From an uncultured Chloroflexota bacterium (GTDB taxonomy: Bacteria > Chloroflexota > UBA11872 > VXNJ01), in the NCBI GenBank assembly GCA_913043205.1, contig CAJWLF010000002.1, positions 109,206-173,205 on the forward strand: a stretch of 64,000 nucleotides of DNA. Direction: 5' to 3'. The stretch's first letter is position 1; every line of letters starts with the position of its first letter. A program made the translations under genes and the position numbers. The notes beneath the pieces were generated by a model. That model was not told where the DNA came from and did no database searches. It worked only from the letters and a program-made list of their open reading frames with translations. Positions 15,600-63,999 of this stretch are shown here, one piece after another.

Positions 15600-16220
15600 T
15601 CAGAAATCAGATGCTTTCTCCAAAAACTTTACACAATACGCACGATATTGACGAAAATTGGAACCATGCTCACGAGGCTCATGCCGTTCTAATTCCCTTA
15701 ACATCGAATCTTCACCAGATGCGATCAGCTTAGCTTTATATAGTGCATAGGCTGATTCCGGATGCGACTGCCGCAGATAATTAAATATAGATCCTGATGT
15801 CCTTTCAAAACGAGCAGTCGCTTCAGAATCCCGTGTAAAACTTTCAATTTCTCTAAGTGGACGCTTTCGGCCATGCCCCAATCGATGATCTACCTCATCA
15901 AGCATGTGTCCGTACTCACCAAGAATACTACGCAACTTACTAGCAAATTCGCTTAAACTTATTTCTCCCAAATCAGTGCTCGGACTAGACAGTGACTCTT
16001 CAACAGAGTCCCAATCTATATTAATTTGGGGATATAGCTCATGAAACTCATCTTTAAATTGAGCAGTTATTGTTGGATCCGCTCCCAAGTACGCCAGAAA
16101 TCGTGATGAACTCCGTAGTTCGTCTGAATCGCCATCAACAAGCCAGGCCACTCTGATTGTTCGCACCTTCCCACTGGGTAGGGTACGCTCTTCTCCACGC
16201 CACTCTACCTGAACACCCAT
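15600..16220 (-). CDS. hypothetical protein (206 aa, no recognisable family)
   Basis: Intact ORF packed between infC (17-bp gap) and aspS (11-bp gap) on the same strand. It is acidic/charged with no TM segments and I recognise no motifs. Confidence 0.55.
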   Translation of the reverse strand: MGVQVEWRGEERTLPSGKVRTIRVAWLVDGDSDELRSSSRFLAYLGADPTITAQFKDEFHELYPQINIDWDSVEESLSSPSTDLGEISLSEFASKLRSILGEYGHMLDEVDHRLGHGRKRPLREIESFTRDSEATARFERTSGSIFNYLRQSHPESAYALYKAKLIASGEDSMLRELERHEPREHGSNFRQYRAYCVKFLEKASDF

Positions 16221-41570: not shown

Positions 41571-42689
41571 TTATAAGTAGTCGGCCAAAATTGTACCTGT
41601 CAGATATTCTGATGGGATTTCTGCATCATGGCTACCAGAAGCCGGATAACGAAATTCCTTGCCCTCATAATTTCGCAATACTATCCATTCATCGTCGACC
41701 GATACCATTCTATTTGGACCTACGGTCATTTTACCTCCACCTCCTGGGGCATCGATCACATACATAGGAACCGCAAAGCCTGAAATATTACCCTGCAAAT
41801 AATTCATTATTTGCAGACCGGTACTAACATCAGTACGAAAATGATGAGTACCCTTAACCAGGTCAGCTTGGTACAGGTAGTAAGGCTTTACTCGCATTTT
41901 GAGCAATCCTAACATCAACTCTTTCATAATTTCTGGATCGTCATTCACTCCTTTCAACAAAACCGTCTGACATCCTACCGGGATACCAGCATCAATCAAT
42001 CGACCACATGCCACCGATGCTTCTTCCGTCAATTCTCGCGGATGGTTGAAGTGAGTATTCACAAAAAGCGGGTGGTATCGTTTAAGTACATCGGTTAGCC
42101 CTTCAGTTACTCGCTGAGGAAGCACGCATGGTAATTTCGTACCAATCCTCAACACCTCAATATGTGGTATGGATCGCAATTCGTTGAGAATGCGTTCAAG
42201 ATAATTATCCTCTAAGAGCAGTGGATCTCCTCCCGAAAGAAGAACGTCACGGATCTCGGTGTGCTCACGCAAATAACTGAATACATCCTGCATCTCGTTC
42301 CACGGTGGCACAGGATTTTTCCCGACCTTGCGTTTCCGAGTGCAAAACCTGCAATAAATAGCGCATGTATAAGTAACGGTAAACAAGACGCGATCTGGAT
42401 AACGATGTGTCAGATGCTTAACGGGAGAATCATCTCCATCCTCGCCTACAGCATCCTCCATGTAATACGTAGGATCATTCAATTCTTGCTCAGAAGGAAT
42501 GATCTGTTGCCATATTGGATCACCTTCTTCACGAATCAAGCTGGTGTAATAGGCATTTGAGAAAAACGGGTATAGTTTGCGTACGTTATCTATTTCGTCC
42601 TGTTTAAGACCATCTAAATCTGGAAGGTCAGAGCCGCGGCGAATATTAGAGCGCATTAGACTCTTCCACTCCGGTACTGTACTACTCAA
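41571..42689 (-). CDS. KamA-family radical SAM aminomutase (lysine 2,3-aminomutase-like)
   Basis: Characteristic CxxxCxxC cluster in KamA context (TVTYTCAIYCRFCTRKRKVG), a SAM-binding GGDPL motif (LSGGDPLLLED), and overall KamA/EpmB/EamA-like layout. 372 aa, with no C-terminal Cys-rich zinc motif. Confidence 0.85.
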   Translation of the reverse strand: MSSTVPEWKSLMRSNIRRGSDLPDLDGLKQDEIDNVRKLYPFFSNAYYTSLIREEGDPIWQQIIPSEQELNDPTYYMEDAVGEDGDDSPVKHLTHRYPDRVLFTVTYTCAIYCRFCTRKRKVGKNPVPPWNEMQDVFSYLREHTEIRDVLLSGGDPLLLEDNYLERILNELRSIPHIEVLRIGTKLPCVLPQRVTEGLTDVLKRYHPLFVNTHFNHPRELTEEASVACGRLIDAGIPVGCQTVLLKGVNDDPEIMKELMLGLLKMRVKPYYLYQADLVKGTHHFRTDVSTGLQIMNYLQGNISGFAVPMYVIDAPGGGGKMTVGPNRMVSVDDEWIVLRNYEGKEFRYPASGSHDAEIPSEYLTGTILADYL

Positions 42690-42773
42690 TACAGGAATCC
42701 TCTCGTTCCCTGAATCCGTGCATAAACTGGTGCTACCTTGGAGCCATACATCGATCTTATTTGAATAATGTTG

Positions 42774-44201
42774 TCAGTCATTGCCAACCATAACTGGAGA
42801 CATAACTGCAGTACTCATACCATGTAATATTTTGCTTGATGCAGGGCACGCAGTTGCTAACACACCAGCCAACTTTGCTTCTCCGTCTTCCACAAAATAG
42901 TACGGGGAATAACGGATGCGAGAATCAAAAACCTTAACCTCGTTTGAATCGAAGTCAAAATATTCGACCGCCAATCGTCTACTTTGTTCATACGGCTGCA
43001 GCACATAGGGAGTTGTACTGAAAGCTTGCAAAGCTTCCTGCAGCGACGAAGCCCATACATCTTGGTTCACATCATGACCAATAGTCACACCACGAGCACC
43101 CCAGGACAATTCTGAAAAACCCGATGGCTTTATAACCATTCGACGCTGCTTCTGAGTGATATTGGATAGATCAGACCACCTTCTTATTGATTTACCCGCT
43201 GTGATTAGCGGAGGAGATATCGCAGCAAACGGAGGCAGCTCAGTTGGATCCAACACCCAAGTACGCGGAATTATGTTTGATAGCACCGAGTGGGATTGAT
43301 CACCAATCTCGTGCACCCAATAATCAGTCAATTCAGGGTGATGAAATAATGCCAAAAGCAATTTCTCTTCCAATTGTGCCTTAGGGGGAGGAGATACGTG
43401 GACACGCCGGTGTCGCATCGCATGAAAAACAAAATCCACATTAGGAATATTCTTTAAGTCATGCAATTCAAAGAATCTATATAGGACATCAATTCTTTGA
43501 ACTTCCCCATTTGTATTCGTGACCAGGTCCCCTAGCTGGTAATCCAAGTCTCGAGGATGAACCAGCCTAGCGCTTACCCCAATTTTCTCCAGCCTGCTCG
43601 ACACAAGCTGCATTTCAGACCTGTATGATTCTGATTCATCAGACACCACGATGGCCACACTAGGAACATCTAATCTACAATCATCAATTAAAGCCCTTCC
43701 AAAAGCCTCTACAACTCCATCGGCAGCACCCAACAGACTGTAGCCCATGGATTTATATCCAGAAGACAGGGCATCTAAAAGCCCTATTCCTCCTGGCACA
43801 GAGTCAAGTTCAGTCGCCACTAAGTTATCCGACTCTGTAAGCATTAAATCAGGTCGAATTACAAATGGTAAGTTGGATTTCGTCCTGTTCAGCCTCCCTA
43901 ATTCCCTAACAGAATCACTCTTTCCACGATCCAGTAATTCAGATATCCAGCCCGGCTGGTGCCCGCGAACACTATCCAAATACAGTCGGTTAGACGCCTT
44001 ATAGAAACGCAAGAGGTGATTTCCCAGAGATCGAAATTTATCAGCGACATCACAAGATATCTCAATTGGCTGAGGAGATACCCGAAACGGGACCTTGGAC
44101 ACTCCTACCCCCATACCAACCTCACCAAAAAGACCGCTTTCTGGCAGTCCTGCGATCATTGCCTCCATACGCTGGGACAACTTAGATACTTCAGATTTCA
44201 A
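42774..44201 (-). CDS. hypothetical protein, possibly ATP-grasp-like (475 aa), co-directional with and immediately upstream of the KamA-family gene
   Basis: No clear family. Weak ATP-grasp-like elements (RMVIKPSGFSELSWGARGVTIG resembles the K-P...G..G phosphate-binding strand; central VAIVVSDESESY...ARLVHPRDL resembles pre-ATP-grasp/GspS-like regions). 85-bp gap to kamA. Confidence 0.45.
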   Translation of the reverse strand: MKSEVSKLSQRMEAMIAGLPESGLFGEVGMGVGVSKVPFRVSPQPIEISCDVADKFRSLGNHLLRFYKASNRLYLDSVRGHQPGWISELLDRGKSDSVRELGRLNRTKSNLPFVIRPDLMLTESDNLVATELDSVPGGIGLLDALSSGYKSMGYSLLGAADGVVEAFGRALIDDCRLDVPSVAIVVSDESESYRSEMQLVSSRLEKIGVSARLVHPRDLDYQLGDLVTNTNGEVQRIDVLYRFFELHDLKNIPNVDFVFHAMRHRRVHVSPPPKAQLEEKLLLALFHHPELTDYWVHEIGDQSHSVLSNIIPRTWVLDPTELPPFAAISPPLITAGKSIRRWSDLSNITQKQRRMVIKPSGFSELSWGARGVTIGHDVNQDVWASSLQEALQAFSTTPYVLQPYEQSRRLAVEYFDFDSNEVKVFDSRIRYSPYYFVEDGEAKLAGVLATACPASSKILHGMSTAVMSPVMVGND

Positions 44202-44706
44202 GCACTTAACTCAATCAAATTACACATTTACTTTGTCAGGAAAACCGTTTTCCCCAACAACAATACTAGCAGGTCAATCAACTTGACTATCTGAAGACCC
44301 TCAATTGTAACGCTTATACGTTAGATGATTTAGTTCGATACATGTTCTTTTTACACGGATAAAAACTTCTACAGAATCTGCCTGGATGCAGTAGGGCTCT
44401 TTATATTGACTGACGCATTAGCTCACCGATACCATAGTCATCCTAATAGTCGCCAGTATCGTCTGGGCATTCTTTGCAGTAAACAACAAACAAAACTTGT
44501 ATACATCAAAAATTGGGTGCTACAAACGACTGTGCTTCTATCAGATGCACAATGTCCAAATGCCAGATTGAGAATTTGTAAGACACAATGCACCAACTCC
44601 AAAGTTACAGCTCGCAATCACCATCAACACTGCTGATACAAAACAAAGGTGATCTCCACTGAAATCTGCGAGCAAATTTACGGTTTGCCTATTAGCTACA
44701 GCAGCA

Positions 44707-46698
44707 TTGTGTGTACTTTCAGCGTGTGAAGTTTTCGTATCCACGGTGGCCCCAACGCCCACTCTAGTAAGCCAGGCTAACACTGGAACTAGAGTGATGA
44801 CCGACGTAAAGAAGGGGCTAGTCGAAGAAGCAATCAGATCCACAGGGCGGCTAGAGGCCGATAAACGGGAAGATCTGTTCTTTCGTGCACCCGGAAGAAT
44901 AAAAGATATTGCAGTTCGACAGGGAGATTTGGTGAAAACAGGCCAGATACTCGCAGAGTTAGAATTGGGTGGATTGGAATCTCAAGTTGCTGACGCTAAG
45001 AAGGCGTTCGAGACTACGGATCTGCGGGTAAAGTCTGCCGAGTCAGCTCTAAGTGCAGCTCGCTCTGCTGCCACACAGGCATGGTTACTCGCTGAAAACG
45101 ATGCGATATTCCGTAACCAGTCATTGAAAGACTTGCAGAATGGAGGAAACCCTGCAGATGTGGGCTTGGCTGAAGCAGCGGTAGCAAAGGCTTCAATAGC
45201 CTTAATCGACGCACAACGAAAATATGATTCATTGATAGCCGCCGGAGCGTTGTCTGATAAAGCAGCATCGAGTACAGCAGCTCAAATGGAAGCAAATAGA
45301 GTAAAAGCCGCACAAGAAACCGAAGGGATTCGAGCCCGTAAAAAACCCAGCCTAGAGAGTGCCAAAGTCGAAGCCAGCAAAAGATTAACCGAATTGGAAT
45401 CGGCAAGAGACGAAGCCTTGACGGCATTTTACGAGTCAGAGAAGTCGCTTGAAGACACCCTAAACCAACCGACAGCATCCGCTAAAAGAGATGCTGAAGT
45501 AATATTCGAGAAGGCTAAACTTACCCATCAAGAAGTGATAGGTGGGAGTGGTTCAACAGAGAAGAAACAGAAAGCTGAATTAGATTTCCAAGAGGCCACC
45601 CGAACTTACAACGATTCTCTTTTGCCAGCAAGTGCTGCTGAGATAGCAAAAGCAAAGACAGCCGTGACTACTGCCAGATCGGCATCTACCAAAGCCGCTA
45701 ATAATCTAGCGGAGGCCTTGGGCAACGGGTCACGCCAACAAGCGATAGATCGACTAGCGATACAGGTGCAAGGCGAATACGACGATGAACTGGCTATTGC
45801 GGAAGCAGCTGAGCTAACGGCCACTCTAGCGGCCGAATCCGCATTGCTAGATACAAAAGATGTTTCTGCAGGTCTCGGCACGGCTGAGTTACAGAAAGTC
45901 CGTTACGGATTAAATGAAGCCCGTGCAACTCTTTCAAAAACAAAAGAGCAATTGCGTAAGTTGAATAGCCCGACTGAAGACGAGCTTCAGGTCGCGAAAA
46001 ACCTAGCATTAGCCGCCGAAACCAAACGTAAAGATACTAAGCAAAAAGTTGAACAGTATGAGTCAAAAACATCTTCCAAAGACATGGACCTGATAATTCT
46101 TCGTAATAGTCGCGATCAAGCTCGAATAAAATTGGAGCGATTTCAAGAACAAGAATTTGAGAATCAGATTATTGCTCCGTTTGATGGGGAGATCACATTC
46201 GTCCAGGGCAAGGCTGGAGACCAGGTGGCTGCATACAAAGAAATTATCGGATTGGCAGACCAGGGCAAATTGGTCGTCGAAGCCCTGATTGCAGAGGTAG
46301 ATCAACCGTCACTGTCTGTAGGACAGGCTGTGGAAGTAGTGCTCGATGCATTCCCAGGGCAAACATTTGAAGGCAAGGTAGCATCACTGCCTCGAAACAT
46401 AGTTAGTAGTACCGGTCAATCGGTAAAAGTTCCAGAAACTAAATTTAACGTCGATTTGGGCACCGCCCCTGCCGAGCTTGGAATGCTCGCCAGGCTCAAA
46501 ATAACCATAGAAGTCAAAGACAACGTTCTTTTAGTTCCCATCAGCGCTGTCCGAACAGTGAACCGCAGGGAATTTGTCGAAACAGTAATAGATGGACAAA
46601 GAAGAAGCTTACCGGTCACCACCGGTATTAGAAGTGATTTAGATGTGGAGATAGTGAATGGCCTTGAGGAAGGAATGTCAATCTTCGCTGCCCCTTAG
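44707..46698 (+). CDS. efflux transporter periplasmic adaptor (HlyD/MFP family) lipoprotein with an unusually long (~400 aa) coiled coil; translation probably initiates upstream at the CTG at 44659
   Basis: C-terminal MFP beta-barrel/MP domains (IIAPFDGEITFVQGKAGDQVAA...; LLVPISAV). Huge A/E/K-rich coiled-coil region. The upstream in-frame sequence LKSASKFTVCLLATAALCVLSAC is a textbook lipoprotein signal with an LSAC lipobox, preceded by an AGGTGA SD 6 nt before the CTG. Confidence 0.8.
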   Translation: MCVLSACEVFVSTVAPTPTLVSQANTGTRVMTDVKKGLVEEAIRSTGRLEADKREDLFFRAPGRIKDIAVRQGDLVKTGQILAELELGGLESQVADAKKAFETTDLRVKSAESALSAARSAATQAWLLAENDAIFRNQSLKDLQNGGNPADVGLAEAAVAKASIALIDAQRKYDSLIAAGALSDKAASSTAAQMEANRVKAAQETEGIRARKKPSLESAKVEASKRLTELESARDEALTAFYESEKSLEDTLNQPTASAKRDAEVIFEKAKLTHQEVIGGSGSTEKKQKAELDFQEATRTYNDSLLPASAAEIAKAKTAVTTARSASTKAANNLAEALGNGSRQQAIDRLAIQVQGEYDDELAIAEAAELTATLAAESALLDTKDVSAGLGTAELQKVRYGLNEARATLSKTKEQLRKLNSPTEDELQVAKNLALAAETKRKDTKQKVEQYESKTSSKDMDLIILRNSRDQARIKLERFQEQEFENQIIAPFDGEITFVQGKAGDQVAAYKEIIGLADQGKLVVEALIAEVDQPSLSVGQAVEVVLDAFPGQTFEGKVASLPRNIVSSTGQSVKVPETKFNVDLGTAPAELGMLARLKITIEVKDNVLLVPISAVRTVNRREFVETVIDGQRRSLPVTTGIRSDLDVEIVNGLEEGMSIFAAP

Positions 46699-46731: not shown

Positions 46732-49605
46732 TTGATTTACTCGCTAGTGGCTTTCGCGGCCAAAAGATTGTGGAACAATGGGCTCCTGATCCTTAGTACG
46801 GCTTTCGGACTCCTGATCGCGGCAACTCTAGTAACAGCAATCCCTATGTTCGCAGAGGGGATAAGTGAATTATTACTAAAGAAGGAACTTGAGAAGCCGA
46901 ATCTGCGTATATCAGGATTGCCTGCAAGCGCCGTGCAGCTACGCCATTTTAGTCGTCATAAAACTAATGAACCACCAACGTCAGTTTCGACCTACTTAGA
47001 AGCAGATGCCTTTTACTCCACCCAAATGAGCGCAATTGTAGGACTTGAAGAAGAAATCCAAGTGAGTTACCTGCAGACAGACGTCGTTCCCCTTATGAGA
47101 TTTTCAGATGACACCGAGTCTCTGCTCAAAGCGCGAGGCCTAAACTACGGCTTCTTCGTTACCATCGATGACCAAAACAACCATGTCAAATTGCTAGAAG
47201 GGCGACTCCCTGAAAGCACCTGGGGCACGGTTGTCGAAGAAGGCTCAGGGCAACAATTACCCCTAATCGAAGCCATGATGATAAATGATTCTCTGGACAT
47301 TCTAGGTTACTTGGTTGGTGATCGAGTGAAAACCGTATACAAGAACATCAACACCGGGCAGGAGTTCCCAATAGCCGTCGATCTAGTGGGTCGTTTTGTA
47401 CCTAAAGATCTATCGTCAGAATACTGGTTTTACAACGTAGAAAGCTCCTTCGATAGAGGAGGCATGTTTGTAAATCGGGACCTCTATTTAGACAGGCTAC
47501 TGGGAGAATATCCTGGGCTTTTTTATGAAGCAACTTGGTACTCAGATTTCAACCCAGATAGCATAAACGCCGGAAATTATCGCAGAGTTACCGGTGGTCT
47601 ATATGGCCTTCGGTCGAGCACAAATACTATCTTGCCAAATACAAAGCTAGAGTATTCCCCAGAACAAATATTCGCTGAATTCGAAAACAAGTTGTTCTTC
47701 CTGCAATTATTGCTGCTAGTACTAAGTGCTCCGGTAGTAGCAATAGTTCTCTATTACATCAGTTTGTCTGCAGGCATGGTTGTCGACAGGCAACGAGCTG
47801 AAATAGCAATATTAAAAAGTCGCGGCGTCGGGACTTTACAAATAACAAGCGTATACCTCTTAGAGGGGATTATCATCGGAGCATTCGCCTTGGCCATCGG
47901 CCCTTTACTTGCATTAGGAATGGCTCAAATCGTCGGTAAAACGTATACGTTTTTAGTGTTCACAAATAGAGAATCTCTTCCGATCGACCTATCTCCGCGC
48001 CATTATACGTACGCCGGCGGTGCTATTTTATTATCTATAGCTGCTACTTTGGTCCCCGCAATTAGTGCTGCCAGGCAGTCCATAGTGGAATACAAGGCCG
48101 GTGTGTCACGAACTACAGGAAAACCACTATTCCAACGGTTTTTCTTAGACGTAGCTCTGTTTGCATTAAGCATCTACGGCTTTATCAGTTTGCGAAATCG
48201 GGATTCATTACTTAGCGTAGGGCCTGAGGGAGAATTCTTTTCGGACCCATTATTGCTAGTAATGCCTGTGATATTCATTTTCGCTGTGGCAGTACTGTTT
48301 TTGAGATTCTTCCCATGGCTTGTGGCACTATTCGCATGGGCAGGGTCCAGATGGTGGGGGGTTGGAATTCATCTGGGACTTCGCCAAATAGGGAGAAGTC
48401 CTGGGCAATTCTCAAGGTTGGTCCTACTGCTAATTCTGACTTTGGCGTTAGGAACTTTTAGTGCATCAATGGCATCAACTATTGATCGGAATGTTACCGA
48501 CCGAGCATTGTTTGGTGTAGGAGCCCTGGCATTTATCGAAGAATCAGGAGAGTGGGACGAAGAGAATGAAGAATGGTTAATCCAACCTGTAGACGTCCAT
48601 GAAAAAGCTTCTAATGAAGACGGAGACCCACTCATTAACAATTACGCAAGATTTTGGCATAAAGGAGGGGATGGAGATGCGAAATTTGAAGTCCCTGGGC
48701 GAGGTGCCCTGGAAGATATATTTGTATATGGAATTGATCCTATTCCATTCGCAAAAACAACGTTCTGGCGACCTGATTTTTCAATTTACAATTTGAATTC
48801 ACTTGCAAATGTACTAGCTGGTGATGAACGGGCGCTTCTCGCCGATAAGTCCTATTTTGGAGACCAACTCCGCTACAATCTGGGAGACCCGATAGTAGTT
48901 CGCTTCGGACAAACTGATGTTGAATTTTTTCTATCCGGATGGATCGACAGCTTCCCAACCCATTACCCAGAGGATGGTCCATTCGTTGTCGGCAATCTTG
49001 ACTATATACACCGAAATATAGGTGAAAGCCCGTGGGATGTATTGGTACAACCAGCAAACGACGCTAGCGCTACTGAATTAGCTAACGCACTCAAACAATT
49101 AGATCTCCACATCTTGGACAGCAAAGACGCTCGAGTAATAATTCAAGACGCCCGTGATGATGCCACACAAATCGGAACCTTCGGAGTTTTAACAGCTGGG
49201 TTTGTTATATCAACCATTTTGACATTACTAGGATTTCTACTTTATTCCTTCTTCTCGTTTCGTCGCAGGTTGCAACAATTCGGGATACTGCGTGCAATGG
49301 GTCTATCCGTAAAACAGATGATCGGTCTATTCATGTTTGAAAACGGATTTTTGATTGGATTAGGAACCATAATTGGAACAATTCTCGGCATAATCACTGG
49401 CAAAATGTTTATACCGTTCCTGCAGTTAAGTGCTGATCAACAAGCTTCAACACCAACATTTGTGATCGAAACCGCATGGGGAGATATTGCCAAGATATAT
49501 ATGTTGTTCATTCTAGTTCTTGCAATCGCCGTTCCCATATCCATTTGGATGCTACGCAATATTCGGATACATGAAGCCATGAAATTTGGGGAGGAAACTG
49601 GATGA
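46732..49605 (+). CDS. ABC transporter permease with two fused FtsX-like domains (MacB/DevC-like, 957 aa)
   Basis: Two repeats of TM1, a large extracytoplasmic domain, then a 3-TM FtsX bundle (first half ~aa 300-480, second ~aa 800-957), with a conserved FtsX C-terminal pattern in each. Confidence 0.85.
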   Translation: MIYSLVAFAAKRLWNNGLLILSTAFGLLIAATLVTAIPMFAEGISELLLKKELEKPNLRISGLPASAVQLRHFSRHKTNEPPTSVSTYLEADAFYSTQMSAIVGLEEEIQVSYLQTDVVPLMRFSDDTESLLKARGLNYGFFVTIDDQNNHVKLLEGRLPESTWGTVVEEGSGQQLPLIEAMMINDSLDILGYLVGDRVKTVYKNINTGQEFPIAVDLVGRFVPKDLSSEYWFYNVESSFDRGGMFVNRDLYLDRLLGEYPGLFYEATWYSDFNPDSINAGNYRRVTGGLYGLRSSTNTILPNTKLEYSPEQIFAEFENKLFFLQLLLLVLSAPVVAIVLYYISLSAGMVVDRQRAEIAILKSRGVGTLQITSVYLLEGIIIGAFALAIGPLLALGMAQIVGKTYTFLVFTNRESLPIDLSPRHYTYAGGAILLSIAATLVPAISAARQSIVEYKAGVSRTTGKPLFQRFFLDVALFALSIYGFISLRNRDSLLSVGPEGEFFSDPLLLVMPVIFIFAVAVLFLRFFPWLVALFAWAGSRWWGVGIHLGLRQIGRSPGQFSRLVLLLILTLALGTFSASMASTIDRNVTDRALFGVGALAFIEESGEWDEENEEWLIQPVDVHEKASNEDGDPLINNYARFWHKGGDGDAKFEVPGRGALEDIFVYGIDPIPFAKTTFWRPDFSIYNLNSLANVLAGDERALLADKSYFGDQLRYNLGDPIVVRFGQTDVEFFLSGWIDSFPTHYPEDGPFVVGNLDYIHRNIGESPWDVLVQPANDASATELANALKQLDLHILDSKDARVIIQDARDDATQIGTFGVLTAGFVISTILTLLGFLLYSFFSFRRRLQQFGILRAMGLSVKQMIGLFMFENGFLIGLGTIIGTILGIITGKMFIPFLQLSADQQASTPTFVIETAWGDIAKIYMLFILVLAIAVPISIWMLRNIRIHEAMKFGEETG

Positions 49606-50504
49606 GCAATCATAGTAGTATTGCAATCGGTGAACCCTACATTACGTGCGACAATCTGGTCCGCATATTCAAAGTAGCTGACTTAGAAGTGGTTGCTCTT
49701 CAAGGGCTAGATTTGATCGTCAACAAAGGGGAGTTGATGGCCATCATCGGCAATAGTGGTTCTGGCAAATCCACACTATTAAACGTGCTAGGCGGATTGG
49801 ATAGGCCAAGTGCGGGACGATGTTTAGTCGGAGGGTTAGATATAGTAAAGGCCAGCTCAGCCGAATTGGTTCGCTATAAAAGAGACATGGTCGGATTTGT
49901 TTGGCAACAAAGCTCCAGAAATATGATCCCTTACTTGTCAGCCAATGAAAATGTTCAGGCTCCTATGGTATTTGCTGGTATGTCAGCAAAAAGACGTAAG
50001 GCTAGATCTGAGGAACTGCTGGAGGCGGTAGGATTAAAAGATAGAATGCATCACCGACTAGGAGAATTGTCTGGAGGGCAACAGCAACGAGTCGCAATAG
50101 CGATATCACTTGCAAACAACCCTGATCTATTACTGGCAGACGAGCCTACAGGCGAAGTTGACAATGAGACGGCTGGACATATTTACGAAATATTACATGA
50201 CCTTAACCGCAATCAGGGATTAACTGTTGTCATCGTATCTCATGACAGAAATATAGCCAGACAAGTGGATAGGGTTGTGGCAATTCGTGACGGACGAACA
50301 AGTACCGAAACAGTGCGACGAGTTACTGATGACGGATTACCTCAATCCCACGATGAGTTCGTGATAATAGACGCTAATGGCAGACTTCAAATCCCCTCTG
50401 AATATCTTCAAGAATTGGGCATTAGAGATAGGGCAATCGTAGACGTAGAAGACGGAAACGTCATCATCCGCAAGGCCAGTGAAGACACCAGCAATGGACT
50501 CTGA
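49602..50504 (+). CDS. ABC transporter ATP-binding protein (MacB/LolD-type NBD with a C-terminal extension)
   Basis: Walker A (GNSGSGKSTLLN), signature (LSGGQQQRVAIA), Walker B (LLLADEPTG) and an H-loop (VSHD). 4-nt overlap (ATGA) with the permease gene. Confidence 0.9.
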   Translation: MSNHSSIAIGEPYITCDNLVRIFKVADLEVVALQGLDLIVNKGELMAIIGNSGSGKSTLLNVLGGLDRPSAGRCLVGGLDIVKASSAELVRYKRDMVGFVWQQSSRNMIPYLSANENVQAPMVFAGMSAKRRKARSEELLEAVGLKDRMHHRLGELSGGQQQRVAIAISLANNPDLLLADEPTGEVDNETAGHIYEILHDLNRNQGLTVVIVSHDRNIARQVDRVVAIRDGRTSTETVRRVTDDGLPQSHDEFVIIDANGRLQIPSEYLQELGIRDRAIVDVEDGNVIIRKASEDTSNGL

Positions 50505-51297
50505 CACCCCTACCATTCACACTAAAAATGAACTTGTAGAAATCGAGTCAGCATGTCGCTACTACCACGAAGGTGAAGATAACGAAGTGCGGGCAGTGGA
50601 CAAAGTTGACTTAACCATTGCCAATGCTCAATTTGTGGCATTAAGGGGTCGGTCAGGATCAGGGAAAACCACTCTACTCAACCTAATAGGCGGACTAGAT
50701 CAGGTTACCGCTGGTCGCGTGCAGTTTCGCCATACAGACTTGGCTAACATGAATGATGAAGCCCTCACAAAATTACGTCGTCACGAAATGGGATTCGTAT
50801 TTCAAACTTTCTCTCTTCTACCAGTTTTGTCTGCAGTTGAGAACGTAGAACTAACAATGAGAATAGCTGGATTGCCGAGTGGTGACCGTCGAAAAAGAGC
50901 AGAGGAACTTCTTGATTTGGTGGGACTCACCAGCAGAATGCATCACAGACCATTCGAACTCAGCGGTGGCGAACAACAGCGAGTTTCAATAGCAAGGGCA
51001 CTAGCAAATAAGCCTTCATTACTAATTGCAGATGAACCCACCGGCGCACTAGACAGTGTTACTGGACTAGAAATCATGATGCTTTTCCGGCGTATAGTGG
51101 ATGAACAGAATATTGCAATCGTAATGGCAACTCATGATCCAGCACTCAGTCAGTTCACTGATGATACGTGGCTTATGGATGATGGTAGTTTAAGCCATGC
51201 TGAGGGGCCACTGGACATAGATCTTCCAGACTTGGTCCAGCACGTAGAGTTCGACCCAGTTCCAACATCCGACGATGTGTCCGATGGAGATGTGTAA
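50494..51297 (+). CDS. ABC transporter ATP-binding protein (second NBD of the same efflux operon)
   Basis: Walker A ([12 protein letters not shown]), signature ([12 protein letters not shown]), Walker B (LLIADEPTG) and an H-loop (ATHD). The ATG at 50494 overlaps the upstream NBD stop, although the ORF track starts at a GTG at 50479. Confidence 0.88.
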
Positions 51298-60555: not shown

Positions 60556-61353
60556 TCACTTATAGCCAGATTGCTGCCGAGCACGCTTCCAGTGATCTGT
60601 TCGTGTATTAATGTTTCCTAACTGAAACATTATGAGAACTATAGTAGCAACAACACCAAGTACCAGCGCTATCCATTGGGCCTGGGTAAATAGCCCATAG
60701 AGTTCATCGCGACGCAAAAAGGTTACCGCAAATCTAAACCAGGAATATAAGAAAATATAGACAAAAAATACTCGCCCAGAGCCACCCCACCTATGTATCA
60801 AATTAATCAAAACCGCAAGAAATATTAGGTCTGCCACTGCCTCATAAGCGGCAGCTGGATGGGCTGGATAGGTAATACCGTTTGAATCGCGCTCCGCAAG
60901 CGTCGATGAATCCGTATATAAGAATGCCCAAGGCAAATCGGAAGCAACACGGGTATGTTCACCATTAATTATGTTAGCCAATCTTCCAATAGCCTGACCC
61001 AAAATCAGCCCCAACCCGCCAACATCCATTAGTGGTCTTATTGGCAATCCATTTGCGATGCATCCTAAAACACCCCCGGAAACACCTCCTATAATCCCTC
61101 CCCAAATCGCACCACCTCCTTTCCACATTTGCGGAATCAACATCATATCTTTGGAATAGATTTCATCCCACTTATCGATTACATGCAGTATCCGTGTCCC
61201 CAAAATACCACCTAAAATCGCCCAGAACGCTATGGCGTCCACATCATCCGGGCTTATGCCAACAGCATACGCATAGCGTCTACATAGCCACCAACCCATA
61301 CCAATACCCAATACAACTATTGGCCCATAGGTTCTAAGTTGAATATCCCCCAC
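60556..61353 (-). CDS. lgt: prolipoprotein diacylglyceryl transferase
   Basis: Lgt pattern (YGPIVVLGIGMGWWL..., GGILGTRILHV, the conserved His/Tyr-rich signature). 265-aa polytopic membrane protein. Confidence 0.88.
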   Translation of the reverse strand: MGDIQLRTYGPIVVLGIGMGWWLCRRYAYAVGISPDDVDAIAFWAILGGILGTRILHVIDKWDEIYSKDMMLIPQMWKGGGAIWGGIIGGVSGGVLGCIANGLPIRPLMDVGGLGLILGQAIGRLANIINGEHTRVASDLPWAFLYTDSSTLAERDSNGITYPAHPAAAYEAVADLIFLAVLINLIHRWGGSGRVFFVYIFLYSWFRFAVTFLRRDELYGLFTQAQWIALVLGVVATIVLIMFQLGNINTRTDHWKRARQQSGYK

Positions 61354-61495
61354 AGGTATGTATGGGCCGAAAGGAATCTCTATCGCAGGAAAAATTGTTC
61401 AAACTCCAAACTTGCAACATGTCGAATAACCCGATGCCATAAATTTAATTTATTTGAACATCTTGGACCACATGTCTGTAATAGGCCAATATTTC

Positions 61496-62647
61496 CTACT
61501 CGGATTTCGCATCACATAAATTGGTAATCTGTCCAGTCTCAGCATTAATTAGGTCTTTGCCTTCATAGTAGCCAGTAAGCTCTACAAACCCTCTGCCAAC
61601 TTTATTCCCTGCTATTAATGCCTCAACGGCACCTTCCCAATATACCTGGCCTGTACTGGCACGGGTATCAAGCTCTTGATTTTTCATTACAGGAATTAGC
61701 GTTAAATTGATGTTGGTGTTTTTTACTGTGAGATCCCATCCAGACGGATAAGTAGCTCCAGTGGTAGGACTAGTCCAGCTATCAAGGGCCTTTATAGCGA
61801 ATTCTTCACTGGTCAGATGCCGTACTGCTCCAAATTCGCTGACCAAAGTGCCATATTTCATCACGATTTCACGATCTTCGTTGAATACAAAAGAAGCAGT
61901 AAAATCACGACCATCATCCAATTGCAAACTAAACCAATCCCAGCCACCCGTACCTACAGAAACAAAGTCTCCCCATTGGTGATCCATCCAGGCTTGACCA
62001 GTGACGTATTTAGGCCCTTCGTCAGTAGTTAAAACTCCTGCTAGTTGCAACCTCGTATACGAATAGTAATAACTCCATCCATATGGTGAGAAATCTAACA
62101 ATCCGTCATTGTCATGCAGGGTCACAGGCTTCTGAGGCACGGCCAACAAGTCCAAAGAATAGCCAGGCATATTAGCGTTAATCTTGAAGCCAGAGTCAAT
62201 AAGAGCCAATTTCCATCCTCCAACGCACAAATTTAATCCCGGATTAGCGTTGGCACCATCCGTCACAGAATTACGTTCGGCATAAACAAATTTGTTGGAA
62301 CCTATATCCGATATAGCAAAATGAGCCGCATAGGCAGTTGGAGCTAGTTCACGATTTGCCTGAAATATGACGAATTCAAACCCCATAGGATTTTCTTGGG
62401 CACCATCAAGATGCCCTGTGAAATACCACCATTCAGATAGGTTGTTGTGAGGTAATTCGTCTGCTGGGAGTTGTATATCTTGATACACATCAGCAGGAGC
62501 TGAACCGGAAAATTCAGGCAATGATTTATATTCCATGCCACACCCAGCCAACAAAATAATGAAAATAATCCCTGTAACGCACGCCATACGCTTGATCATT
62601 ACTCGCGATACTTCCGACGTACTATTGTTGGAGCCCACCAGTTCCAA
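61496..62647 (-). CDS. AttH/CrtC-like (lipocalin-like hydratase-fold) lipoprotein; probable start at the internal ATG at 62597-62599
   Basis: Lipoprotein signal (MIKRMACVTGIIFIILLAGCGM) and an AttH/CrtC-like motif (EWWYFTGHL...GFEFVIFQ; AAHFAISD). Confidence 0.6.
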   Translation of the reverse strand: MELVGSNNSTSEVSRVMIKRMACVTGIIFIILLAGCGMEYKSLPEFSGSAPADVYQDIQLPADELPHNNLSEWWYFTGHLDGAQENPMGFEFVIFQANRELAPTAYAAHFAISDIGSNKFVYAERNSVTDGANANPGLNLCVGGWKLALIDSGFKINANMPGYSLDLLAVPQKPVTLHDNDGLLDFSPYGWSYYYSYTRLQLAGVLTTDEGPKYVTGQAWMDHQWGDFVSVGTGGWDWFSLQLDDGRDFTASFVFNEDREIVMKYGTLVSEFGAVRHLTSEEFAIKALDSWTSPTTGATYPSGWDLTVKNTNINLTLIPVMKNQELDTRASTGQVYWEGAVEALIAGNKVGRGFVELTGYYEGKDLINAETGQITNLCDAKSE

Positions 62648-63999
62648 TCACCTAACAATTTCATAGTCGATGGAACAAGTAGAGATCGAACAATCGATGC
62701 ATCCACAAACACAGCGATAGCAGCACCTAACCCAACCGCCTTAATCAATACTATATCCGCAGACACAAAAGCCAAAGATACGACTATAACGACCGTAGCG
62801 GCACTCGTTATTACTCTGCCGCTACGTTCTAACCCTATCGCTATAGCGGACGCATTGTCGTGCCCAGCATCATAAGCCTCTTTTATACGGGCTAACAAAA
62901 ACACTTCATAATCCATGCTCAACCCAAATAGTAGTGCGAACATAATGATTGGCAGAGTGGCTTCGATATATCCCAGCGGTTCAAAACCCAATATTCCAGA
63001 CATCCACCCATCCTGAAAAACGAGTACTAAAGCACCAAAACTAGCTCCCAAACTGAGGACGTTCATTAACACAGCTTTGACAGGCAAAAACACCGATCGG
63101 AACAATAATAATAAAACGATATAGGTCAACAAAAAGATGATCCCTATGGCCCGAGGGAATTCTGAATAGAGCCTATCCACGAAGTCTGTCAATCCAGCAG
63201 CCCCTCCACCAACAAGCATGTCAAGATTGTTGGTATCTCTATAATCACGGATTGCATAAACTAAGCCGCGAGCATCGTCACTGGTTGGTGCACCTTTAGG
63301 TTCTATGATGATTAATGCTGATTTACCTAAGGTTGTCATGTGGGCTATAGCACGAGCATAGGGATCGGTAATTACTGATGGATTACGATAGAGCAACTCA
63401 TACTCTTCTATAGTGATACGATCATCAATAGAAACCGGACTCACTACTCGACTTACCCTGTCATCTGACTTCAAGACACTCGTGAATTCGTGCATCACAT
63501 TCAAAGATGTTTTTGCTAAAGACGAGTCTGGAAAACGCCATACAGCAAAAATCGGAGTGACATGGCCCGGACCAAACTCTTCTTGTAAAAGGTCATAAGC
63601 TTCTCTAGACGGCGTCGACTTGTTCAATACAGATGCATCTGGAGCACTGACGCGAGCCCGTAATACAGGGGTTACCATGACAAGTAAAAATAATGACACG
63701 ATAAAAAACACCGGGATCGGCCTAGCCATTACTGCGCGGGCCACTCGAGCCCAACCCCCAGTCGTGTCAGAACGACGTCTCCACACCCGATAACGATCTA
63801 TGTTTGAACCAATTATGGCCAACAGTGCCGGCACTAATGTAATAGCGGCCATGACCGCTATAGCGACCACAACCGCACCTCCAGCTCCTATCGACCTAAG
63901 CATCATAAATTCGAACAGTATCAATGAAGATAGTCCGACCATAACTGCTAACCCTGAGAACACAACAGCTTTACCAGCAGTCTCTACAGTCGTCACCAC
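62599..63999 (-). CDS. MMPL-family RND-type membrane transporter, partial (N-terminal part lies beyond the window end)
   Basis: MMPL/SSD transmembrane pattern (GASFGALVLVFQDGW...; LSMDYEVFLLARIKEA; second TM bundle VVFSGLAVMVGLSSLILF...). Its stop codon overlaps the start of the downstream lipoprotein gene (TAATG). Confidence 0.8.
   Translation of the reverse strand: MVTTVETAGKAVVFSGLAVMVGLSSLILFEFMMLRSIGAGGAVVVAIAVMAAITLVPALLAIIGSNIDRYRVWRRRSDTTGGWARVARAVMARPIPVFFIVSLFLLVMVTPVLRARVSAPDASVLNKSTPSREAYDLLQEEFGPGHVTPIFAVWRFPDSSLAKTSLNVMHEFTSVLKSDDRVSRVVSPVSIDDRITIEEYELLYRNPSVITDPYARAIAHMTTLGKSALIIIEPKGAPTSDDARGLVYAIRDYRDTNNLDMLVGGGAAGLTDFVDRLYSEFPRAIGIIFLLTYIVLLLLFRSVFLPVKAVLMNVLSLGASFGALVLVFQDGWMSGILGFEPLGYIEATLPIIMFALLFGLSMDYEVFLLARIKEAYDAGHDNASAIAIGLERSGRVITSAATVVIVVSLAFVSADIVLIKAVGLGAAIAVFVDASIVRSLLVPSTMKLLGDWNWWAPTIVRRKYRE

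Follow-up and report, generated by a model that had tools for sequence, protein, structure and literature searches.

Translation of the efflux-pump adaptor gene of a MacAB/YknXYZ-like ATP-binding cassette (ABC) exporter is likely to start at a CUG codon at position 44659 of the 64,000-nt stretch of DNA analysed here (the window), which comes from an uncultured marine Chloroflexota bacterium. An earlier annotation made from the letters of the window (the first-pass annotation) had named this codon as a candidate natural CUG start, and comparison with orthologues supports the proposal: all 14 distinct sequences of the clade containing the gene (clade A) keep the CTG, its spacing from a Shine-Dalgarno (SD) motif, and a Lys/Arg-containing n-region directly after it.

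Start region of the adaptor gene

The following features were located in the start region.

44659..46698, + strand: HlyD/YknX-type membrane-fusion (adaptor) gene, 679 codons plus stop
44647..44652, + strand: SD sequence AGGTGA, 6 nt before the CTG, with the core AGGTG at -12..-8 from the C of CTG
44650..44652, + strand: in-frame TGA that ends the adaptor frame two codons 5′ of the CTG and sets the 5′ limit for in-frame starts
44659..44661, + strand: proposed CUG initiation codon, presumed to be decoded as formylmethionine (fMet); CTG in 14/14 distinct clade-A sequences
44659..44724, + strand: predicted signal peptide for signal peptidase II (SPase II), M(CUG)-KSASKFTVCLLATAALCVLSA, 22 codons, with K2 and K6 in the n-region and a hydrophobic core
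44716..44727, + strand: lipobox L-S-A-C; Cys23 (44725-44727) is the predicted lipidated first residue of the mature protein
44707..44709, + strand: TTG, first canonical start codon of the open reading frame (ORF), rejected; no SD, product MCVLSAC with Cys at position 7
44746..44748, + strand: GTG used by the 650-aa gene calls, rejected; inside the invariant VAPTPTL, past the lipobox
44797..44799, + strand: ATG at which the 633-aa gene call from Tara begins, rejected; 24 codons 3′ of the lipobox Cys

After the TGA the codons read TCT CCA CTG(44659) AAA TCT GCG AGC AAA TTT ACG GTT TGC and continue with CTA TTA GCT ACA GCA GCA TTG(44707) TGT GTA CTT TCA GCG TGT(44725) GAA, giving the peptide S-P-L-K-S-A-S-K-F-T-V-C-L-L-A-T-A-A-L-C-V-L-S-A-C. 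The first-pass annotation had described this frame from S-P-L-K to L-S-A-C after the stop at 44650 exactly, and had placed AGGTGA at 44647-44652, 6 nt before the CTG, correctly. Its statement that no ATG, GTG or TTG occurs in the adaptor frame from that stop up to the TTG at 44707 was also confirmed. One item had to be corrected: the TTG at 44707, which it took as the annotated start, is merely the first canonical codon, and the gene calls that we found use GTG 44746 or ATG 44797. Between the TGA and the conserved Lys-rich n-region, the window holds only the codons TCT, CCA, and CTG. The single other near-cognate codon in this stretch of the window was ACG at 44680, which was not conserved and had no SD.

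Conservation of the SD sequence and CTG in orthologues

The adaptor family is small, with members from marine metagenomes (several of them from Tara Oceans) and metagenome-assembled genomes (MAGs) labelled Chloroflexota bacterium. A single-protein search of genome contigs gave no matches; homologous loci were found by alignment-based search of genome contigs. The 14 distinct clade-A sequences were those of the window, L001, and L024; L003, L006, L026, L021, and L034; L022; L023; and L009, L011, L014, and L025. When their start regions were anchored gap-free, CTG-AA(A/G/T) was observed at the same position in all 14. The clade includes two CTG subclades of approximately 48% amino-acid identity, indicating that the CTG has been kept for a long time.

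A GGAG-type SD with the consensus aGg.g was found 7-8 nt upstream of the CTG in each of the 14 sequences, a functional spacing for initiation at this codon. Thirteen sequences had it at -12..-8, and L022 had its GGAG core one nucleotide further upstream, at -12..-9. Where the window has AGGTG, the equivalent positions read AGGAG, AGGGG, TGGAG or GGGAG in 12 of the 13 other clade-A loci. The 7-nt spacer (-7..-1) and all sequence further 5′ were variable and unalignable across the clade. Judged from these alignments, the arrangement SD-N7-CTG-AAR is more than chance, as it recurs in 14 orthologues amid unalignable non-coding surroundings.

Downstream of the CTG, the substitutions were of the coding type, such as CGA/AGA for Arg, CTG/CTA for Leu, and TCT/TCC/TCA for Ser, and an n-region of the form K-x-R or K-x-x-x-K was retained across clade A. 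In L006 a TAG stands immediately 5′ of the CTG, and in L021 and L022 no ATG, GTG or TTG occurs between the CTG and the lipobox Cys. In the window, L006, L021, and L022, the conserved N-terminal segment could not be encoded from any canonical start. An indel placing an ATG or GTG in frame, which according to the first-pass annotation would have pointed to a sequencing error, was looked for in the orthologues, and the opposite was found, with CTG kept in 14/14. A second homologue search, using a clade-A profile, found no canonical reversion of the CTG within clade A; it added only L034, with CTG, and L040, a clade-B-like sequence with ATG at the same site.

Conservation of the triplet was compared with that of conserved codons inside the gene in a codon alignment of 13 clade-A genes. 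Among the columns with invariant Leu, 0/27 kept one codon across the 13 sequences, and among invariant columns of four- or sixfold-degenerate amino acids the number was 0/157. Of the 69 Leu codons in the adaptor gene of the window only 8 are CTG, which makes it a minor one. Compared with these values, CTG in 14/14 indicates an exceptional, nucleotide-level constraint on this triplet beyond that on the amino acid, as expected of a start codon. Over the same divergence, the start codon of the FtsX-type permease gene of the operon varied, being TTG in the group of the window, ATG in that of L003, and GTG in that of L009. The permease TTG in the window (46732) has no clear SD.

The leader or intergenic region of the adaptor gene (44202-44646, +) is unusually long, at approximately 450 nt, and those of the orthologues are similar in length; between subclades, only the SD is conserved in it. 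An Rfam scan of 44150-44800, covering the 457-nt leader and the start region, revealed no known RNA family at E<=1. Scanning the leader for promoters and terminators gave two weak sigma-70-like matches that were not above those in shuffled sequences and are uninformative. Local RNA folding of 13 loci showed no conserved hairpin around the start, and in 11/13 the stability of the region did not exceed that of shuffles, as would fit a region open for initiation.

Signal peptide and predicted lipidation

The PROSITE pattern PS51257 consists of the lipobox [LIVMFWSTAG](2)-[LIVMFYSTAGCQ]-[AGS]-C with six uncharged residues before it, together with the rule that Cys lies at position 15-35 of the precursor and that K or R occurs within the first 7 residues. 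The lipobox pattern is matched by V-L-S-A-C at 44713-44727. The rule on Cys position and charge is obeyed with the CTG start alone (Cys23; K2 and K6), and a start at TTG 44707 breaks it (Cys7, no K/R). The CTG-initiated precursor of the window (MKSASKFTVCLLATAALCVLSA followed by the lipobox Cys) fits both PS51257 and G+LPP, in agreement with the near-ideal SPase II signal seen by the first-pass annotation. Its further remark that a TTG start deletes the n-region was also correct, the resulting MCVLSAC having no K/R and failing the lipoprotein rule. In clade A, PS51257 was matched by 12/13 N-termini begun at the CTG, versus 0/11 begun at the next canonical codon.

All aligned homologues share an unchanged lipobox Cys and, after it, the motif E-[VFY]-[FIL]-V-x-x-V-A-P-T-P-T-L; in the window protein, the segment between C23 and M47 includes EVFVSTVAPTPTLVSQANTGTR. 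Among the ORFs of the window that were scanned is also a gene for the enzyme that modifies such Cys residues.

60556..61398, - strand: lgt (prolipoprotein diacylglyceryl transferase), PF01790, E 1.1e-47

Adjoining lgt is a gene for an ATG-initiated putative lipoprotein, MIKRMACVTGIIFIILLAGC (61496-62599, -), with CrtC and lipocalin-like domains. The presence of both genes in the window suggests that the organism has the lipoprotein pathway, and the adaptor would be lipidated at Cys23.

The equivalent site in relatives and proposed origin of the CUG

The first-pass annotation had considered that orthologues might carry an ATG at the equivalent position, and canonical codons were indeed found there in more distant relatives, namely ATG in L040 and TTG in L015. 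The ATG-AAG-AAT-CGG-CTG of L040 (M-K-N-R-L) aligned residue by residue with CTG-AAA-AAT-CGA-CTC of L021, and L015 had TTG-AAG at the site of the CTG. L013 reads ATG-CGT-TTG-AAA, and in L016-L018 the ATG is likewise two codons upstream. Members of clade B have ordinary ATG- or TTG-initiated signal peptides, e.g. MRIKPKVLILIPIALATVALSGC, and the outgroup L031 encodes an ATG-initiated lipoprotein, MNLRAALCVALTVLLAAC.

In a neighbour-joining tree, all CTG sequences formed one clade (136/200 bootstraps), which was sister to the ATG/TTG clade. The CUG would have arisen once, at the base of a marine Chloroflexota clade. Probably initiation shifted to the Leu codon of an ancestral N-terminus M-R-L-K after loss of the ATG upstream of it, or a TTG changed to CTG; the CUG would thereafter have been kept by purifying selection.

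Existing gene calls

In the protein collection used here, gene calls identical to the window protein start either at GTG 44746 (650 aa; P0038 and P0041) or at ATG 44797 (633 aa; P0037), the former in NCBI, ENA, Logan, and JGI entries and the latter from Tara. Since both called starts are 3′ of the lipobox Cys, these calls lack the signal peptide and the lipid anchor. The called N-termini in clade A were inconsistent, lying inside the hydrophobic core, past the lipobox or far upstream, which is the pattern expected from a start codon invisible to gene callers. The orthologue calls were 633, 650, 665, 686, 719, 722, 744, 751, 787 or 805 aa long, and none of the approximately 38 cluster members had 679 or 730 aa, the lengths expected had the site turned canonical. 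In some orthologues the adaptor frame is open far upstream, as seen in the upstream regions of L011 (1141-1273), L021, and L022; callers then reach an unrelated upstream ATG or GTG and add non-homologous N-terminal extensions (the 744-, 751-, 787-, and 805-aa calls). Every gene call of the family found in the protein collection used here, for the lineage of the window and for its CTG relatives alike, thus misplaces the N-terminus, being either truncated or given spurious extra residues. With the signal peptide and lipobox lost, any downstream prediction would mislocalise the protein.

Alternative explanations

The alternative that survives best, although improbable, is that the CUG is used mainly by termination-reinitiation from a short upstream ORF (uORF) with an overlapping UGA (C-UGA), and not by SD-directed initiation de novo. 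A possible uORF of this kind, of doubtful role, was noted in the window.

44588..44662, + strand: possible 24-codon uORF, MHQLQSYSSQSPSTLLIQNKGDLH plus stop, ATG at 44588, in the +1 frame, its TGA overlapping the CTG (C-TGA)

CTG-AAR creates a +1-frame TGA in 14/14 loci, and in each of them this frame has no stop over the preceding 38-296 nt; a canonical start occurs in it in 11/14 loci, with an ATG at -71 shared by the window, L001, L024, and L025. However, the overlapping TGA is an automatic result of a second codon starting with A, and it is absent from some relatives with an ATG start (L013 and L018, which have ATG-CGT). L003, L023, and L034 have no canonical uORF start, the sole one in L011 gives a 2-codon ORF, and start positions differ among close relatives. 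The uORF differences between the window and L001 fell 6/8/8 on codon positions 1/2/3 (hand count), which is no coding signature, and the uORF ATG at 44588 in the window has no clear SD. Termination-reinitiation may contribute, though the evidence does not require it.

Initiation at the first canonical codon of the hydrophobic core (for the window, TTG 44707; for the orthologues, GTG or ATG at other positions), with the Lys-rich stretch as an untranslated leader, is very unlikely. TTG 44707 is the first ATG, GTG or TTG of the ORF, a canonical codon is present between the CTG and the Cys in 11/13 clade-A loci, and gene callers chose such codons in several relatives. Against this, all 11 such alternatives fail the lipoprotein rule, as MCVLSAC does with its Cys at position 7 and no n-region, and none of the internal canonical codons has an SD upstream. 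Their positions do not correspond between loci (6, 8, 12, and 9 codons before the Cys), and L021 and L022 have none. A start at an internal codon also leaves the invariant CTG-AAR, the fixed SD, and the upstream coding-type substitutions unexplained.

Still less credible is the reading in which the gene calls are right, with the start at GTG 44746 or ATG 44797, no signal peptide, and a non-coding lipobox region. Its support is that P0038, P0041, and P0037 are identical to the window protein from those codons. However, C-E-x-x-V-x-x-V-A-P-T-P-T-L, which lies upstream of or spans the called starts, is invariant in amino acids across homologues of 44-50% identity, GTG 44746 itself being the invariant V of VAPTPTL, and clade B and the outgroup have the same stretch downstream of a normal ATG-initiated signal peptide. 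Furthermore, with neither an export signal nor an anchor in the membrane, a membrane-fusion adaptor could not get to where it acts.

An error in sequencing or assembly, or a pseudogene undergoing decay, has nothing in its favour beyond the rarity of CTG starts and can practically be dismissed: the ORF is intact over 679 codons with conserved domains, the operon is syntenic in all relatives, the same CTG occurs in 14 divergent sequences, and the sequence from -120 to +120 around the CTG is the same in five contigs that were assembled independently from different Tara samples (four of them identical to the window over the whole 3.9 kb, the fifth differing at one base), which excludes sequencing error.

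Proposed mechanism and weighing of CUG initiation

When the standard pathway is applied to the observed anatomy, the 30S subunit would bind the AGGTG SD with its P site at the CUG, 7 nt downstream. The fMet-tRNAfMet would pair at codon positions 2 and 3, tolerating a C-U mismatch at position 1, and the precursor would begin fMet-Lys-Ser-Ala-Ser-Lys. The 22-residue signal peptide (K2/K6 n-region, hydrophobic core, and L-S-A-C lipobox) would then direct Sec export, after which Lgt would put diacylglycerol on Cys23 and SPase II would cut before it. The mature adaptor would be lipid-anchored on the outer face of the membrane, beside the FtsX-type permease and the ATPases.

Several points weigh against initiation at the CUG. 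Adaptors of the MacAB type are needed in excess over the permease, so a weak start is counter-intuitive. Most loci have an internal GTG, ATG or TTG in the hydrophobic core, from which a short product is possible. The evidence is comparative throughout, the organisms being uncultured, and monophyly of the CTG clade is only moderately supported (136/200). In E. coli, CUG gives approximately 1-2% of AUG-level initiation (PMC11497404; bioRxiv 10.1101/063800), and in Caulobacter dnaA a putative upstream CUG start with an SD gave a toeprint and was unused in vivo (PMC8443254). As a separate caveat, the mature protein would have lost its signal peptide with any of the starts, so that proteomics of its N-terminus gives no decision between them.

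The one-step C-to-U change to UUG was never fixed in the 14 sequences, though the synonymous sites of the gene have all turned over. This missing reversion is a hint that weak or regulated initiation is selected for, or that CUG is not weak in the lineage concerned. That selection actively favours the CUG as a weak or conditional initiator, beyond mere tolerance, is a tentative and rather doubtful proposal. If so, it could act as a translational throttle or switch on the adaptor, for example one responsive to initiation factor 3 (IF3) or initiator tRNA, or one fed by the overlapping C-UGA uORF. Alternatively, this Chloroflexota lineage could have relaxed first-position discrimination, so that CUG is efficient there.

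Use of CTG appeared to be gene-specific. Among the 48 long ORFs of the window that were scanned, nearly all had a canonical start near the upstream stop, and approximately half had a recognisable SD. Two other candidates with an SD and CTG, at 15603 (-) and 39535 (+), failed on inspection. As no other such candidate was upheld in the window, the CUG start is taken to be specific to the adaptor gene.

Comparison with known near-cognate starts and adaptors

CUG accounts for approximately 0.024% of annotated bacterial starts and has approximately 1% of the efficiency of AUG in E. coli (PMC11497404); evolutionary switches to CUG amount to approximately 3 × 10^-5 to 4 × 10^-4 of reconstructed ancestral starts (PMC5622118). 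Few natural CUG starts are supported beyond annotation. On the comparative evidence, the adaptor would be a new and unusually well-conserved case among these very rare genes, with a single origin, retention while the proteins diverged by approximately 50%, and no return to UUG, AUG or GUG.

According to PMC4007540, which cites Baudet 2010, Deinococcus deserti has a single leadered gene with CTG initiation, and an N-terminal peptide confirmed it. The D. deserti gene resembles the adaptor gene in having a leadered mRNA and a non-canonical NUG start as a gene-specific exception in an otherwise canonical genome. The two differ in that the evidence for D. deserti is proteomic and that for the adaptor comparative, that the adaptor codon is kept across a deep clade (approximately 48% identity) without UUG or AUG reversion, and that the initiating residue of the adaptor would be removed with the signal peptide.

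The AUU starts of E. coli infC and pcnB are conserved weak initiators that serve expression control. AUU and CUG have been grouped as near-cognates of 1-2% (bioRxiv 10.1101/063800). As in infC and pcnB, the near-cognate start of the adaptor gene is conserved among orthologues, implying selected weak or regulated initiation. Unlike those cases, in which the mismatch is at the third position, the CUG has a first-position mismatch, and no autoregulatory logic of the IF3 type is evident. The products also differ, infC and pcnB encoding translation or RNA-processing factors and the adaptor gene a putative exported lipoprotein. The case suggests that weak initiation can be selected for in a structural component of a pump.

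Among membrane-fusion adaptors, AcrA and MexA are lipoproteins, and MacA and YknX are anchored by a transmembrane segment. The adaptor of the window resembles AcrA and MexA in belonging to the HlyD family, in its barrel-sandwich and lipoyl-like domains, in the adjacent transporter gene, and in the predicted anchoring at an N-terminal lipobox Cys. It differs from these adaptors of resistance-nodulation-division (RND) pumps in partnering an FtsX-type ABC permease and two ATPases, MacB/YknYZ-like, in its very long coiled-coil region (679-732 aa proteins), and in its Chloroflexota host. Caulobacter dnaA (PMC8443254) likewise has an in-frame CUG with an SD-like sequence upstream of a canonical start; unlike dnaA, the adaptor gene has canonical alternatives that cannot encode the conserved signal peptide, and its CUG is itself conserved. 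The signature, in which the SD is fixed, a near-cognate codon does not vary, and coding conservation sets in, could become a general screen for missed non-canonical starts in MAGs.

The exporter operon and neighbouring genes

The adaptor matched the Pfam families HlyD_D23 (PF16576, 1.3e-13), HlyD_3 (PF13437, 9.6e-12), and Biotin_lipoyl_2 (PF13533, 8.2e-8), and PF25989 (YknX_C) was matched on its homologues; it thus has the HlyD barrel-sandwich and lipoyl-like domains of an HlyD-type membrane-fusion protein. The following genes were found downstream.

46732..49605, + strand: FtsX-type ABC permease, 957 aa, canonical TTG start, Pfam FtsX
49602-50504 and 50479-51297, + strand: two ABC ATPase genes, ABC_tran, E 7e-31 and 7e-33

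An FtsX-type permease and ABC ATPases accordingly accompany the adaptor, with synteny kept in all loci, and the ATPase genes at 49602-51297 complete a MacAB/YknXYZ-like exporter operon. The two ATPase genes are consecutive with a 26-nt overlap, as compared with the single ATPase typical of MacB-type systems.

Upstream of the operon and divergent from it is a gene for a 475-aa protein without Pfam match (42774-44201, -), adjoined by a radical-SAM/lysine-2,3-aminomutase-like gene (41571-42689, -). This pair (41571-44201, -) was present in all clade-A loci reaching far enough. Beyond the putative lipoprotein gene next to lgt, a gene for an MMPL-family transporter was found at 62599-63999 (-).

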